Shown one piece after another: positions 6,221 to 22,192 of a stretch of DNA of 24,000 nucleotides. The stretch's first letter is position 1, and every line of letters begins with the position of its first letter. The translations under genes were made by a program, and so were the position numbers. A model generated the notes under the pieces. It was not told the origin of the DNA, did no database searches, and saw nothing but the letters and a program-made list of their open reading frames with translations. This DNA is from Comamonadaceae bacterium (GTDB taxonomy: Bacteria; Pseudomonadota; Gammaproteobacteria; Burkholderiales; Burkholderiaceae_C). Location of the stretch: contig JAIYCG010000006.1 of NCBI GenBank assembly GCA_027488115.1, positions 41,194-65,193 of the forward strand. The letters are read 5' to 3'.

Positions 6221-6248
6221 GCGGGCAAGTATAAATGGGGGTCAAATA

Positions 6249-6393
6249 ATTGGGGTCAGATCAACATTAATTTTGTCAATCAGAGTGGCTAAAGGCAAAG
6301 GGGGGCTTCCTCATACTGGAGTACCAGAAATCGTTCAGCCCCCCTTTGCCTTTAGCCACTCTGATTAGAAATTAATGTTGATCTGACCCCAAT
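6249..6393. mobile_element. 145-bp hairpin MITE, copy A (TA-flanked, IS630/mariner-like signature, non-autonomous)
   Basis: The 24-nt terminal inverted repeats are ATTGGGGTCAGATCAACATTAATT and AATTAATGTTGATCTGACCCCAAT. TA flanks both ends (6247-48 and 6394-95). A perfect 29-bp inner stem surrounds a 31-nt apical segment. The copy is near-identical to 11019-11163. Confidence 0.85.
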
Positions 6394-6767
6394 TAATTTT
6401 CGGCAACAGAGCCAATCACTGCAGAGCCTTGAGGCAATCCATCTGGGCCTCTGAGTATGGCCAAGTGGCCTTTCAATTTAATGGACGTGCCAGACTTGTG
6501 CATAAAGGGCAAAACACCATCCTTGCTAATGGCAAATTCTTTGACAACTCCCAGCGACTTTGAAAAGCAGTTGCTATGGGCTTGTTGCATCTTCACGGGG
6601 ATGACCATGTTGGCATGTTGGCCCATTGCCTCACTGGCTTCAAAGCCCAAAGCCAATTCGGCGGCTTTGTTCCATAAAGTAATGATGCCGTCGGTGTTTA
6701 CGGCGATCACAATATAAGACATATTTTCAATCAAGGATTGACTGGTTTGAGCGGTGGAGATGGTCAT
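6393..6767 (-). CDS. Stand-alone PAS domain protein with no output domain
   Basis: 124 aa. IVIAVNTDGIITLWNKAAELALGFEASEAMGQHANMVIP is a typical PAS S-box core. The stop codon TAA is formed at the MITE junction. Confidence 0.75.
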   Translation of the reverse strand: MTISTAQTSQSLIENMSYIVIAVNTDGIITLWNKAAELALGFEASEAMGQHANMVIPVKMQQAHSNCFSKSLGVVKEFAISKDGVLPFMHKSGTSIKLKGHLAILRGPDGLPQGSAVIGSVAEN

Positions 6768-10008: not shown

Positions 10009-10980
10009 TTATTCAGGTGTGACGCCAGCACTTTGAGCAACCTTTGCCCAATACGGAATTTCTTTCACAATGCGCGCTGCAAAGACATCGGTTGGCATGA
10101 GATCGGGCTCAACACCCAAGCCTTGCAGTCGCGTTTGAAACTCTGGCTTGCTGGCAATTTTGACCATAGAGGCATTTAGTCGCGCAACAATTGCGTCGGG
10201 CGTACCAGCACGAACTAAAGCACCGCTCCAAGATACCAATTCGTAGTTAGGCACGCCTGCCTCAGAGATTGTTGGAACATCCGGCATGCTTCGCGATCGA
10301 TTCAAACCTGAAACGCCTAATGCCTTCACCGACCCCGCCTTCACTTGTGACATGGCTGATGCAACTGCAACAAAGGTTGTGGAGACTTGACCGCCAATGA
10401 GGTCAGTCAATGCTTGAGCACCACTTTTGTAGGGGATGTGGGTGATGTCCGTTCCTGCCATGGCGTTAAACAATGCCGAACAAAGCTGCGTCGTACTGCC
10501 ACTGCCAGCTGAAGAGTAAGTTAGAACGCCTGGTTTGGCTTTGGCTTCGGCTATCAGTTCTTTGACATTGTTGATAGGTGAGTTTTTAGGTACCAGCAAA
10601 ACCAGCTGTGCATTGCTAATTTTTGTGACGGCTCTGAAATCCTTGTCTGCATCGTAGGGCAGTTTTTTGTACAGGCTGGTGTTGAGGTAATGTGCTGGTG
10701 ATGTGAAAAGAATGGTGTGACCATCAGCAGGCGCCTTAGCGACTGCGTCAGTGCCTACAACGCCTGAAGCCCCTAGTCGGTTATCGACTACCACAGCAAC
10801 ACCCAGATCCTCTGACATGCCATCTGCAATAGAGCGCGCAACGATATCAAGCGCAGTGCCAACGGCAAATGGAACAATTACCCTAATTGGCTTGCTAGGA
10901 AATGTCTGTGAATTGGCGGTTGATGCACCCAGGAACATTGAACTTATTGCGAGTGATGCAAGAAGGCTAGAAAATTTCAT
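10009..10980 (-). CDS. Bug/TctC-family periplasmic substrate-binding protein
   Basis: 323 aa with a signal peptide, followed by FPSKPIRVIVPFAVGTALDIVAR. Its stop lies 3 nt after the ligase start, so the two genes appear operonic. Confidence 0.9.
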   Translation of the reverse strand: MKFSSLLASLAISSMFLGASTANSQTFPSKPIRVIVPFAVGTALDIVARSIADGMSEDLGVAVVVDNRLGASGVVGTDAVAKAPADGHTILFTSPAHYLNTSLYKKLPYDADKDFRAVTKISNAQLVLLVPKNSPINNVKELIAEAKAKPGVLTYSSAGSGSTTQLCSALFNAMAGTDITHIPYKSGAQALTDLIGGQVSTTFVAVASAMSQVKAGSVKALGVSGLNRSRSMPDVPTISEAGVPNYELVSWSGALVRAGTPDAIVARLNASMVKIASKPEFQTRLQGLGVEPDLMPTDVFAARIVKEIPYWAKVAQSAGVTPE

Positions 10981-18927: not shown

Positions 18928-19320
18928 ATTGGGGTCAGATCACAATTGTTTTGGCAGCTTGGCAGCCAATTTGACCGGCATATTGAGTTCAATGCCCAGT
19001 GCATGGGCGAGTGCGTTAGCGCCGCTGACAACGCCGTTTTCATAGCCATCCTCGGCATCGCCAATTTTGGCTGACATGTGTGAGTAGCAAGCGCAAGGTA
19101 TGGTCTGAGCCTGCAACATTTTCAAAGCGACTTTGCCTGCGTCGTCCTTACCGCCACCTGCATCGTTAAAGAAAACGCAACTTGGTTTTTGGCTGAGCGC
19201 GATGACAAATTCAGCAGCAGATCGACCGCCATGTGAGCCCGATACGACGACGGCATTGGCCTGTGCATCGCTGATGTGTGCGATCGAGTCTAGTAAAAAC
19301 AATTGTGATATGACCCCAAT
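18928..19320. mobile_element. 393-bp TA-flanked, inverted-repeat-bounded cassette (mobile-insertion-cassette-like), a variant of the MITE family
   Basis: 25-nt inverted repeats ATTGGGGTCAGATCACAATTGTTTT (18928-18952) and its complement (19296-19320) differ at 1 position. TA flanks sit at 18926-27 and 19321-22. The outer 15 nt are identical to the 145-bp MITE termini. The interior is occupied by one ORF. Confidence 0.6.
18940..19302 (-). CDS. Hypothetical 120-aa protein encoded inside the inverted-repeat cassette
   Basis: The ORF has host-like codon usage and a non-repetitive, globular-looking sequence (VVVSGSHGGRSAAEF...FFNDAGGGKDDAGK...IGDAEDGYENGVVSGAN). The only start is a TTG inside the right repeat, and the TGA stop lies inside the left repeat. 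I could not assign a family. Confidence 0.6.
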   Translation of the reverse strand: MFLLDSIAHISDAQANAVVVSGSHGGRSAAEFVIALSQKPSCVFFNDAGGGKDDAGKVALKMLQAQTIPCACYSHMSAKIGDAEDGYENGVVSGANALAHALGIELNMPVKLAAKLPKQL

Positions 19321-19357
19321 TAAATCTACACTTATGCATCAAATACGGAGCGCTGAA

Positions 19358-20161
19358 ATGACCCCTGAGACATTGCTGCATCACCTTGATCACGGCACGC
19401 TTTGGCCGGCAGCTGAGCTCGCAAGTATGCCTGAAGAAGTTGCGAGTGCCTACCAAACAGCCCTGAAAGTTCGAACACTGAGACAGGCAAGAGGCGAAGT
19501 ACCCAAGGGCTTCAAGATTGGTTTTACCAATCGCAGCATTTGGGAGCGCTATCAAGTTTTCGAGCCCATTTGGGGAACGGTATGGAACACGACGCTTAGT
19601 TTTGCCAACGAAGCAAGTGAATGTCATGTCGATATCTCTAATGTGTGCCAACCTCGGTTGGAGCCTGAATTGGTTTTTGGCATGCGTTGTACGCCGCCTG
19701 CCAACTTAACGCTACAAAGCCTGTATGAGTCTATTGATTGGATGGCCAGTGGATTTGAGGTGGTTCAGTCGCATGCAGACAACTGGAAATTCAAAGTGGC
19801 CGATACAGTGACTGACAGTGGCTTGCACGCCAAATTGGTGGTGGGTCAGCAAGTGAAGTTGTCGGACGTTGCCCAAAATGGCAATGAATTGCATACTTTG
19901 TTGTCGGGTATGTCCCTCGAACTTTTGCAAGCAGGTAAAAGTATAGAGAAGGGCGCTGCATCCAATGTTCTAGACAGCCCGCTAATGGCTTTGCATCACT
20001 TTTTGACAGCCCTCAGAAACTGCCCTGGTGCCCCCGATGTTCAAGCCGGCGATGTCATCACCACAGGCACTTGGACTGACGCGTGGCCCTTGGTAAAAGG
20101 CCAGCATTGGGAAAGCCGTTACGACCTACCCCTAACCGGACTCAAGCTGCAAGTCATTTAA
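19358..20161 (+). CDS. 2-keto-4-pentenoate hydratase-like protein (MhpD/HpcG-type, fumarylacetoacetate hydrolase superfamily)
   Basis: The start is trimmed to the ATG at 19358, with GGAG 7 nt upstream. The track start at 19133 is antisense to the 120-aa ORF. Supporting motifs are VRTLRQARGEVPKGFKIGFTN and GDVITTGTWT. The TAA stop is formed at the solo-TIR junction. Confidence 0.8.
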   Translation: MTPETLLHHLDHGTLWPAAELASMPEEVASAYQTALKVRTLRQARGEVPKGFKIGFTNRSIWERYQVFEPIWGTVWNTTLSFANEASECHVDISNVCQPRLEPELVFGMRCTPPANLTLQSLYESIDWMASGFEVVQSHADNWKFKVADTVTDSGLHAKLVVGQQVKLSDVAQNGNELHTLLSGMSLELLQAGKSIEKGAASNVLDSPLMALHHFLTALRNCPGAPDVQAGDVITTGTWTDAWPLVKGQHWESRYDLPLTGLKLQVI

Positions 20162-20184
20162 TTGGGGTCAGATCAACATTAATT
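20161..20184 (+). repeat. Solo MITE terminus (left-type TIR) preceded by TA
   Basis: ATTGGGGTCAGATCAACATTAATT is identical to the TIR of copies A and B, and TA lies at 20159-60. It fills exactly the gap between the convergent hydratase and hicB genes: the hydratase stop overlaps its first base and the hicB stop overlaps its last. Confidence 0.8.
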
Positions 20185-20579
20185 TACTCAACAGTTAAAG
20201 CCAGATGCGCAATGAGACCAGACCTGGTTTCGCCATATTTTTTGGCTTTTGAATCCAAGCGCGCCAATACCCTTTTGGGCAGGGTAATGTTAACTCGCTC
20301 TACTTCGTCAGACATCAATGCCGGATCGACCTCGACCATTGCCCAGATCCAGCCTTTGAACTCTTTGTGCTTTTGCAGGTGAGAAATAGGGCTTGGTTTG
20401 GGGATAACTTGATCCATGTCCAAAGCGGTTTCAATCCACAACTCGATGGCCTCTTTGGTGTTTTCGATGGCTTCGTCAATGCCTTGATCTGAAGCGGAAA
20501 AGCAACCAGGCAGGTCAGGCACGACAACGCCCCAAGTTTGAGTTGCGGTTGCAGGCTCTATGGCAATTGGGAATTTCAT
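20184..20579 (-). CDS. hicB: HicB antitoxin (HicB N-terminal fold plus C-terminal ribbon-helix-helix)
   Basis: 131 aa. MKFPIAIEPATATQTWGVVVPDLPGCFSASDQGIDEAIENTKEAIELW is a canonical HicB N-domain. The C-terminal VNITLPKRVLARLDSKAKKYGETRSGLIAHLAL is RHH/CopG-like. It lies 3 nt downstream of hicA. Confidence 0.9.
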   Translation of the reverse strand: MKFPIAIEPATATQTWGVVVPDLPGCFSASDQGIDEAIENTKEAIELWIETALDMDQVIPKPSPISHLQKHKEFKGWIWAMVEVDPALMSDEVERVNITLPKRVLARLDSKAKKYGETRSGLIAHLALTVE

Positions 20580-20582
20580 AAT

Positions 20583-20771
20583 TTACTGATCCTTTAATCC
20601 AGACTGCTTTAGCAGTTTAGCCAGCAATCCGGTACCTAAATCTTTGCTGCTAAGAGGAACACTGATGTGACCTGCGCGAAGCGGATGTACATAAACATGG
20701 TGTGATCCTTTGATGCCGCGCAGTTGCCAGCCATTGCGCAATAACAGTGCGATGAACTCTTTGCTTTTCAT
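20583..20771 (-). CDS. hicA: HicA mRNA-interferase toxin
   Basis: 62 aa. MKSKEFIALLLRNGWQLRGIKGSHHVYVHP...ISVPLSSKDLGTGLLAKLLKQSGL matches the HicA/YcfA pattern, including the catalytic GSHH. Confidence 0.9.
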   Translation of the reverse strand: MKSKEFIALLLRNGWQLRGIKGSHHVYVHPLRAGHISVPLSSKDLGTGLLAKLLKQSGLKDQ

Positions 20772-20780
20772 TCAAGCAAG

Positions 20781-20797
20781 ATACACACTATACACAC
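20781..20797 (-). promoter_or_regulatory. Possible hicAB promoter/operator: tandem 8-mers overlapping a -10-like box
   Basis: The minus strand reads GTGTGTAT-A-GTGTGTAT 9 nt upstream of the hicA ATG, with TATAGT (20787-20792) as a -10 candidate. The -35 is poor (cTTGTa at 17 nt). This is motif inspection only. Confidence 0.2.
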
Positions 20798-20827
20798 AAA
20801 CGACAATGTACAAGTGCTTGCAGAATA

Positions 20828-20972
20828 ATTGAGGTCAGATCAACATTAATTTCCAATCAAAGGGGAGAAAGCCTAAGGGGGGCTTCCTCATACTGGCGTA
20901 CCAGAAATCGTTCAGCCCCCCTTAGGCTTTCTCCCCTTTGATTGACCAAATTAATGTTGATCTGACCCCAAT
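20828..20972. mobile_element. 145-bp hairpin MITE, copy C (divergent inner stem)
   Basis: It has the same architecture and TA flanks (20826-27 and 20973-74). The left TIR has one G>A change (20832). The apical segment has one A>C change (20897). The inner 29-bp stem differs from A and B at six positions per arm, all compensated. Confidence 0.85.
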
Positions 20973-22192
20973 TATTTAGGTCTGTCCTTCTCGGGATATT
21001 GGTCAAAAACTGCACCCTGTTCAAACAGTGCTTGAATTTCTTCGGTTGAATAACCCAACTCAACAAGTACCTGCTTGGAGTGCTGACCAAGCCAAGGCGC
21101 GGGCATTCGAATGGTACTCAGTGCACCGCTAGATTTAATGGGCAAGCCTATGGTTTTCATGGGGCCAATGATGGGGTGGTCTATGTCGTGAACCATTTTT
21201 CGCGCATGAATGTGCGGGTCGTTCATGATTTGCTCATAGCCAAAAACAGGGCCACCTGGAATGCCTGCCGCATCCATTTTGCCAACCCAATGTGCAGTTG
21301 ACTCTTGCATCAAAATGGCCTCAATGTCTCGTTCTAATGCATCCGCATTTTTAACGCGCAAAGCTTGCGTGATGTAGAGAGGATTAGACGGCCAATCGGG
21401 CTTCTCAACCACTTTTTCGCAAAACACCAGCCATAGTTTTTGAGACCCTGCGCCCACAGTGACATAACCATCTGCACTTCGATAAGCCTGGTAGGGCGCC
21501 GCGCGGCGGTGCCTTGTGCCCGTAGACGTGGGTATTTCACCCGATCCAAAAAACGCGCCAAACTCCCAAGCTGTCCAGGCAAGGCCGGCTTCTAACAAAG
21601 AGGTTTCAAGGTACTGACCTGTGCCAAAACGTAATTTACCAATCAAGGCCCCCAAAATACCAGAAAGTGCCGTCACGCCACTTGCAATGTCGTTCATGGC
21701 AATGCCCACTTTGACAGGGCGTCCACCGGGTTCACCAGTCATCAGCATGATGCCCGACATGCCTTGCGCAATGATGTCAAAGCCGCCCTTTTTGCCATAA
21801 GGCCCCGTCTGACCAAAGCCAGACAAAGAAGCATAAATGACGCTTGGGTTGACAGCCTTAACTGTCTCGTATCCCAAGCCCATGCGCTTCACAACGCCCG
21901 GCCGAAAGTTCTCCAAGATAATGTCTGCTTTAGAAGCCAAGTCCAAGGCGATCTTCAAACCTCCAGGGTCTTTTAAATTGAGCGCAACACTTTGTTTGTT
22001 CCGGTTCAGCACCGCAAAGCAATAAGACTCGCCATTCACCTGAGGCTCAAAACTTCTAGAAGAATCGCCCTTGTTGGCGTTTTCAATTTTGATCACCTCT
22101 GCACCCATGTCACCCAAGACCATGCTGCAGTAAGGCCCCGCCAGCACGTTGGTTAAATCAAGAACACGAATGCCAGACAAGGGGAGGGTCAT
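20972..22192 (-). CDS. Family III CoA-transferase (CaiB/BaiF/formyl-CoA transferase-like)
   Basis: 406 aa. LSGIRVLDLTNVLAGPYCSMVLGDMGAEVIKIE is the canonical family III N-terminus. The TAA stop is formed at the MITE C junction. Confidence 0.9.
   Translation of the reverse strand: MTLPLSGIRVLDLTNVLAGPYCSMVLGDMGAEVIKIENANKGDSSRSFEPQVNGESYCFAVLNRNKQSVALNLKDPGGLKIALDLASKADIILENFRPGVVKRMGLGYETVKAVNPSVIYASLSGFGQTGPYGKKGGFDIIAQGMSGIMLMTGEPGGRPVKVGIAMNDIASGVTALSGILGALIGKLRFGTGQYLETSLLEAGLAWTAWEFGAFFGSGEIPTSTGTRHRRAAPYQAYRSADGYVTVGAGSQKLWLVFCEKVVEKPDWPSNPLYITQALRVKNADALERDIEAILMQESTAHWVGKMDAAGIPGGPVFGYEQIMNDPHIHARKMVHDIDHPIIGPMKTIGLPIKSSGALSTIRMPAPWLGQHSKQVLVELGYSTEEIQALFEQGAVFDQYPEKDRPK

Follow-up and report, generated by a model that had tools for sequence, protein, structure and literature searches.

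REPIN-like hairpin repeats in Limnohabitans and their probable partner, a single-copy Y1 transposase gene

The 24,000-nucleotide stretch of DNA analysed here (the window) comes from contig C27 of a Limnohabitans genome, G000 (2.95 Mb in 49 contigs, 51% G+C, 96% complete). It contains three 145-bp elements with inverted termini, located exactly where an earlier note, made from the sequence alone, had placed them, as well as single copies of the element end (heads). The features are listed under the names suggested by the interpretation developed below.

6249-6393, no strand: putative REPIN copy 1, an inverted doublet of a 25-nt REP, followed inward by an asymmetric bulge, a perfect inner stem and the apical loop
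11019-11163, no strand: putative REPIN copy 2, between a TctC-family gene and an SDR gene
18928-18952, plus strand: variant REP, left head, with the same 15-nt terminus and then a different 3' half
19296-19320, minus strand: variant REP, right head, inverted, with one mismatch
20161-20185, plus strand: solo REP head, with a first A that is also the last base of the TAA stop of ORF 19133-20161 upstream
20828-20972, no strand: putative REPIN copy 3, with a different, fully compensated inner-stem sequence
6393-6395, 20159-20161 and 20972-20974: TAA stops formed by the TA flank and the first A of a head; the same arrangement occurs elsewhere in G000 at C10:22650, C10:24417 and C34:25218

All three 145-bp copies are intergenic, lie between co-directional genes and have TA on both sides. 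Copy 1 has a TonB-receptor gene on one side and a PAS-domain gene on the other, each encoded on the minus strand. Copy 2 matches the reverse complement of copy 1 in all but one base and the 29-nt apical segment, which is inverted. The last base of copy 3 together with its flanking TA forms the TAA stop of a CoA-transferase gene (20972-22192, minus strand). Copy 3 and the solo head at 20161 bracket a hicA/hicB toxin-antitoxin pair (62 and 131 aa, minus strand), identified by the Pfam models HicA_toxin and HicB_lk_antitox. The neighbouring CoA-transferase gene is present in just 13 of 60 other sampled genomes, so the interval 20161-20972 looks like accessory DNA. The two variant heads face inward around a 120-aa ORF, forming a 393-bp unit (18928-19320); the reading frame opens inside one of the heads, and its product has no Pfam or NCBIfam match.

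The termini of the window copies are inverted repeats of 24-25 nt, with one mismatch in the left terminus of copy 3, and the 15-nt terminus occurs 9 times in the 24-kb window against 0.07 expected from shuffled sequence. Folded as DNA, copy 1 reaches -68.4 kcal/mol (z = -17.7), with an outer stem, an asymmetric internal loop, a perfect inner stem of ~30 bp and an apical segment of ~29-31 nt that contains a 4-bp mini-hairpin. The architecture that the earlier note ascribed to every copy is thus seen in the fold of copy 1, and it recurs in all full copies of the genome.

A scan of G000 gave 72 sites that differ from the 15-nt terminus at no more than 2 positions, and most are true REP heads. We count about 19 full elements (doublets of 142-148 bp) and roughly 65 heads. 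Solo heads are numerous, forms of only 45 or 80 bp also occur, and one pair is nested. Every full copy runs from a conserved 25-nt outer arm through a small asymmetric bulge into an inner stem, copy-specific in sequence yet perfectly self-complementary, and ends in a conserved apical segment that includes the 4-bp mini-hairpin. The REP consensus is a 25-nt sequence, which together with the flanking TA reads TAATTGGGGTCAGATCAACATTAATT; heads start (T/C)A-ATTGGGGTCAGATC. The GTAG- and CGTC-tagged REP superfamilies (PMC3733652) bear these tetranucleotides at an end of their palindrome, and neither tag is present at the heads of the window copies or of the REPs at the RAYT locus described below. 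Rfam returned no family at gathering thresholds, the only sub-threshold matches being microRNA precursors, which are generic long hairpins. The termini had no match in viral contigs or plasmids, leaving a phage or plasmid origin unsupported. Our literature search found no publication describing the family and none joining Limnohabitans and REPIN, in line with the earlier view of it as a possibly undescribed family of short, non-autonomous palindromic elements.

Several arrangements of these repeats stand apart from the typical doublet. At L118 (G047:C87), L094 and G000:C36:14488-14631, a REPIN or an 81-bp form lies exactly central in another element; the nested element replaces the apical segment or inner hairpin of its host and carries its own 5-6-nt inverted flank. 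In G000:C10 (20975, 22650 and 24417) and G007:C32 (781-8231), solo REP heads in the same orientation each lie directly 3' of a gene, 0.6-2 kb apart; the genes of the C10 run are ordinary chromosomal ones (EamA transporter, SOUL-like protein, amidohydrolase, membrane protein). Exact copies of the Limnohabitans REP also occur on metagenome-assembled contigs labelled Cryomorphaceae, Singulisphaera, Algoriphagus and Planctomycetaceae (L002, L007, L032, L043, L063, L080), which are most likely mis-binned Limnohabitans contigs.

G000 encodes a single Y1_Tnp gene (C34:25265-25966, 233 aa), located on a contig other than that of the window, and the earlier statement that the window holds no transposase was confirmed. 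The protein matches Pfam PF01797 (Y1_Tnp) with 44.9 bits (cut-off 23) and NCBIfam REP_Tyr_transpos (NF047646) with 74.8 bits (E = 6e-21), just under the curated cut-off of 80. Its best match among solved structures is 4ER8, E. coli TnpA-REP; the relation is remote (E = 0.007), and the alignment spans the HxH stretch and the Y-x-x-x-NPV stretch. Proteins 87% identical to it carry the NCBI name 'REP-associated tyrosine transposase', and we refer to the gene as the RAYT. The RAYT is bracketed in inverted orientation by the 25-nt element terminus, with one head upstream (C34:25219, plus strand) and two downstream (26026 and 26074, minus strand). Inverted REP bracketing was found at all readable loci of genomes whose RAYT is at least 86% identical (loci L136-L164). 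A unit whose termini lie ~854 bp apart and which encodes a 230-233-aa protein recurs in L024, L026, L057 and L110, and the Y1 transposase is the only gene found between such termini. Most of the 56 other genomes with a RAYT match have a single one. The upstream neighbour of the gene is the same within the clade and its downstream flank is conserved across the genus; the latter points to vertical inheritance at a fixed locus.

The distribution of the repeats was compared across 60 other Limnohabitans genomes, counting as repeat-rich those in which a query that included copy 1 had 12 or more matches. Fifteen were repeat-rich, and 14 of these encode a RAYT at least 86% identical to that of G000; the exception, G003, is 81% complete, and no RAYT was found in it. 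Nearly all remaining genomes have one RAYT of about 60% identity (70% in G051). The ~60%-identical RAYTs are flanked by a related REP that has the first 16-17 bases in common and a different 3' half, and a REP type near-identical to the variant at 18928 in the window flanks the RAYT of G051. REP sequence type thus tracks RAYT lineage. Outside the repeat-rich clade, the shared head occurs in 1-20 copies in five genomes, four with a ~60% RAYT plus G051. The sister-clade REP folds on itself (10-bp stem, 5-nt loop, -6.9 kcal/mol), while the 25-mer of the repeat-rich clade (clade A) has no self-fold (0 kcal/mol). Clade A has therefore lost the palindrome, and pairing there comes from the partner REP.

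Pairing within the elements was assessed in an alignment of 56 elements, all oriented by the apical segment. In the consensus structure of 58 pairs, 28 have changed on both sides; 98.5% of paired cells are complementary, compared with 87.7% in shuffles, and 308 cells are compensated, compared with 64. Sliding the partner arm as a control lowered pairing to 28-51%. The outer helix is almost invariant and nearly all variation falls in the inner helix. A mini-hairpin pair that reads CG in 42 elements and GC in 14 is intact in all of them. Hardly any of the hundreds of changed pairs shows a single-sided G-T state, which fits DNA-level pairing and arm-to-arm copying better than selection on RNA. 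Correction of quasipalindromes by template switching is an established process that would yield exactly such a Watson-Crick-only pattern, and we infer that it may be what keeps the arms paired.

The apical segment also changes its orientation relative to the rest of the element. Viewed from the apical segment, the bulge has its longer side 5' in 40 elements and 3' in 34. Two C25 copies have an inner stem in common and opposite tips, and apical orientation differs between species at single orthologous sites. These flips at orthologous sites, together with the C25 pair and copy 2 of the window, indicate inversion in place and not a by-product of insertion orientation.

The tip is not confined to these elements. 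Its 25-nt motif also caps seven G000 hairpins without REP arms and recurs in 49 of the 61 Limnohabitans genomes, also where the REPINs have not expanded. Outside REPINs, tips usually occur as convergent pairs ~125-290 bp apart, mostly ~126-136 bp, on stems unrelated in sequence. A role of the tip as a cross-phylum core was considered and rejected: in a phylum-wide sample it was found in 3 of 401 genomes, all within the family. As a separate observation, the genus contains 'double-hairpin' units, in which two convergent hairpins about 126-136 bp apart, with unrelated, covarying stems, each carry the 25-nt motif of the REPIN apex at the tip. A genome has 1-6 of these units, which are spread over the whole genus and extend to one neighbouring genus:

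G000:C47:6780-7060 and 10390-10660 (the same as L179:2780-3060 and 6390-6660): double-hairpin units; others lie in L185-L194

Since the tip is found at other hairpins throughout the genus, it was probably captured between two REPs in clade A. Judged from sequence comparison, the 145-bp element is probably a REP doublet that captured a hairpin module with a 25-31-nt tip. A further-reaching, joint proposal, namely that the captured tip is a recognition site for the RAYT or a host protein and that the paired arms and flips come from dedicated DNA-level hairpin copying and not from ordinary selection, is tentative and in our estimate rather unlikely.

Mapping the flanks of 129 elements from other genomes to G000 gave about 30 elements of other species with both flanks placed, and nearly all of these sites are filled in G000 too. 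Unusual site-specific inner stems are common to the orthologues. Arm identity between orthologous elements is 61-100%, similar to that of the flanks, and the termini are 92-100% identical; some orthologous sites have interiors of different kinds, the forms there measuring 44, 52, 81, 88 or 145 bp. The elements thus appear to be old residents, their ends conserved and their interiors freely evolving and sometimes replaced. Two candidate unfilled sites had diverged, unalignable spacers, and the other-species comparison gave no clean empty site and no insertion or excision event; movement was not observed. A search of the 60 genomes for orthologous neighbourhoods of copies 1 and 3 showed adjoining genes that were not syntenic or not conserved. 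Contigs of near-identical strains from four metagenome runs, compared over 20 kb, end inside the repeats, so that neither presence nor absence alleles are readable in them.

Published REPINs are inverted REP doublets with a hairpin-forming spacer, in which compensatory changes are common, and they accompany single-copy, vertically inherited RAYTs (PMC3116915, PMC5581495). Because bracketing of the RAYT, co-distribution and vertical inheritance are the defining traits of these systems, we assign the Limnohabitans repeats to the same class: they are, with a probability of about 0.85, REPINs of a REPIN-RAYT system of a type already known, and the single-copy Y1/HUH RAYT is their partner. Weighing against the assignment are the NCBIfam score just short of its threshold, a clade-A 25-mer that forms no fold by itself where a classical REP is a short imperfect palindrome, the missing GTAG or CGTC tag, the modest number of copies and the failure to see any insertion or excision.

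The earlier note had read the repeats as MITEs of IS630/Tc1-mariner derivation, mobilised in trans by a DDE transposase that duplicates a TA target. Long terminal inverted repeats and AT-rich flanks agree with such an origin, and TA stands on both sides in 90 of 117 non-redundant elements from G000 and about 30 other genomes, all three window copies among them. TA flanks on each copy thus hold for the window and not for the family, since in 21 of the 117 elements the left flank is CA and the right flank TG. Target duplication gives direct repeats, so a non-palindromic variant would read CA...CA, a combination found in none of the 117. As the variants are CA...TG and never CA...CA, the flanking dinucleotide is part of the inverted repeat and no target duplication is present; inverted symmetry runs a median of 5 nt past the element ends set in the earlier note, and the self-folding REP of the sister clade has this TA paired within its stem. 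Neither DDE_3 (PF13358) nor HTH_Tnp_IS630 (PF01710), the domains of IS630-type transposases, was detected in the 96%-complete genome, and in place of the full-length, DDE-encoding insertion sequence expected to share the termini, the sole gene that they bracket is the single-copy Y1 transposase. With the termini also absent from viral contigs and plasmids, a mariner-type MITE was rejected on the inverted CA/TG flanks, the lack of a DDE domain and the Y1 gene between the termini, and we regard it as highly improbable. What stands of the proposed mobilisation in trans is the likely involvement of an enzyme encoded elsewhere, the RAYT bracketed by the termini, and not the IS630/Tc1-mariner mechanism; the repeat turned out to be of the REP/BIME type, an identity that the earlier note had itself named as incompatible with its reading.

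The hairpins could instead be mainly functional for the host and selected by it, as RNA terminators, RNase barriers or protein-binding structures, or as protein-binding or cruciform sites in DNA, with the RAYT link incidental or secondary. The co-directional genes around all three window copies suit this proposal, as does the position of TAA heads, 11 of 51 of which abut the stop of an ORF of at least 80 codons, compared with 8% of random TAA triplets. Persistence at orthologous sites across species, genus-wide conservation of the apical 25-mer even outside REPINs and the mini-hairpin pair that covaries unbroken (42 CG, 14 GC) point the same way. However, the loop occurs in both orientations relative to the flanking genes and the bulge (34 versus 40), contrary to what a strand-specific RNA signal would lead one to expect, G-U pairs are so scarce that DNA-level pairing fits better than selection on RNA, and no Rfam family scores above threshold. 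Published REPs have both roles, so that host function is compatible with a REPIN identity; as the main explanation we consider it quite unlikely. A derivation from attC-like sites of an integron-type cassette system, with hicAB or the 120-aa ORF as cassettes, is exceedingly improbable. The conserved structure on stems of variable sequence, the asymmetric unpaired bases, the two small gene units of the window bracketed by REP heads and the same-orientation heads after successive genes in G000:C10 and G007:C32 recall such sites, but the termini of the three window copies, compared by eye, do not fit attC core sites, most copies lie between ordinary large chromosomal genes and are not arrayed, and the associated enzyme is a Y1 HUH transposase and not an IntI-type tyrosine recombinase.

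The REPIN-RAYT reading suggests the following mechanism. Inverted doublets of the 25-nt REP would fold into a long hairpin in single-stranded DNA. The RAYT, related to IS200 and to E. coli TnpA-REP and bracketed by the same REP heads, would be the partner; by analogy with TnpA-REP and the IS200/IS605 enzymes, it may bind the folded single strand and cut it at the REP heads, and this cutting could lead to the spread or maintenance of the doublets. On this reading the inverted repeat takes in the flanking TA (or CA) plus some three more A/T-rich bases, and no target duplication is made. The interior would be a hairpin module in its own right, variable in its stem and conserved in its 29-31-nt tip, and both arm complementarity and tip flips most likely result from template switching within the element or arm-to-arm conversion at the DNA level.

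No new kind of system is revealed by these repeats. They do provide the abundant freshwater genus Limnohabitans with a defined REPIN-RAYT system that has a clear partner gene. With a sister clade that keeps the ancestral self-folding REP in few copies and dozens of orthologous sites that can be compared across species, the genus offers a natural series for studying the expansion of a REP family, the perfect pairing of drifting hairpin arms and tip inversion. For annotation, the repeats caution against automatically taking palindromic TA at hairpin-repeat ends for a mariner-type duplication. REPINs also explain contig breaks and likely mis-binned contigs among freshwater metagenome-assembled genomes.

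The closest known counterparts are the REPIN-RAYT systems of Pseudomonas fluorescens SBW25 and other bacteria (Bertels and Rainey 2011, PMC3116915; Bertels et al. 2017, PMC5581495). Common to both are inverted doublets around a long-hairpin spacer, compensatory changes, extragenic location, long persistence at fixed sites and a Y1 transposase, single-copy and vertically inherited, that the same sequence brackets, with REP sequence and RAYT lineage changing together. The unusual details of the Limnohabitans system are a REP without a palindrome of its own, a captured hairpin module and in-place inversion of the tip. In contrast to SBW25-type systems, a clade-A REP is no longer palindromic by itself and can pair only with the second REP of the doublet; the spacer forms a module of its own, with a tip that the whole genus conserves outside REPINs and that flips relative to the rest of the element; and copies number in the tens, not hundreds.

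E. coli REP/BIME elements and TnpA-REP (RayT/YafM; 4ER8; PMC3479197) resemble the Limnohabitans system in the HUH/Y1 family of the enzyme, in the flanking of its gene by REPs and in the small stem-loop formed by the sister-clade REP. The sequence relation to TnpA-REP is only remote (E = 0.007), however, the GTAG tag is absent, the Limnohabitans RAYT has 233 aa with a C-terminal extension where TnpA-REP has 165 aa, and the repeat unit is a 145-bp composite hairpin in contrast to the 35-40-nt E. coli REP. TA-duplicating MITEs, among them Neisseria Correia elements and IS630-derived MITEs, share the length of ~100-150 bp, the ~25-nt terminal inverted repeats, TA at either end in most copies, the intergenic location and the lack of coding capacity; they differ in that the Limnohabitans TA is not a duplication (CA/TG being inverted), that no DDE partner was found in the genome and that the bracketed gene is a Y1 transposase. 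PATEs, the palindrome-associated, non-autonomous derivatives of IS200/IS605, are likewise hairpin-ended, are expected to produce no target duplication and depend on a Y1 HUH enzyme acting on single-stranded DNA. The two ends of IS200/IS605 elements differ from each other, whereas those of the Limnohabitans repeats are identical inverted copies, and the autonomous IS200/IS605 partners are multi-copy, whereas the Limnohabitans enzyme is encoded by a single-copy gene whose downstream flank is conserved throughout the genus.
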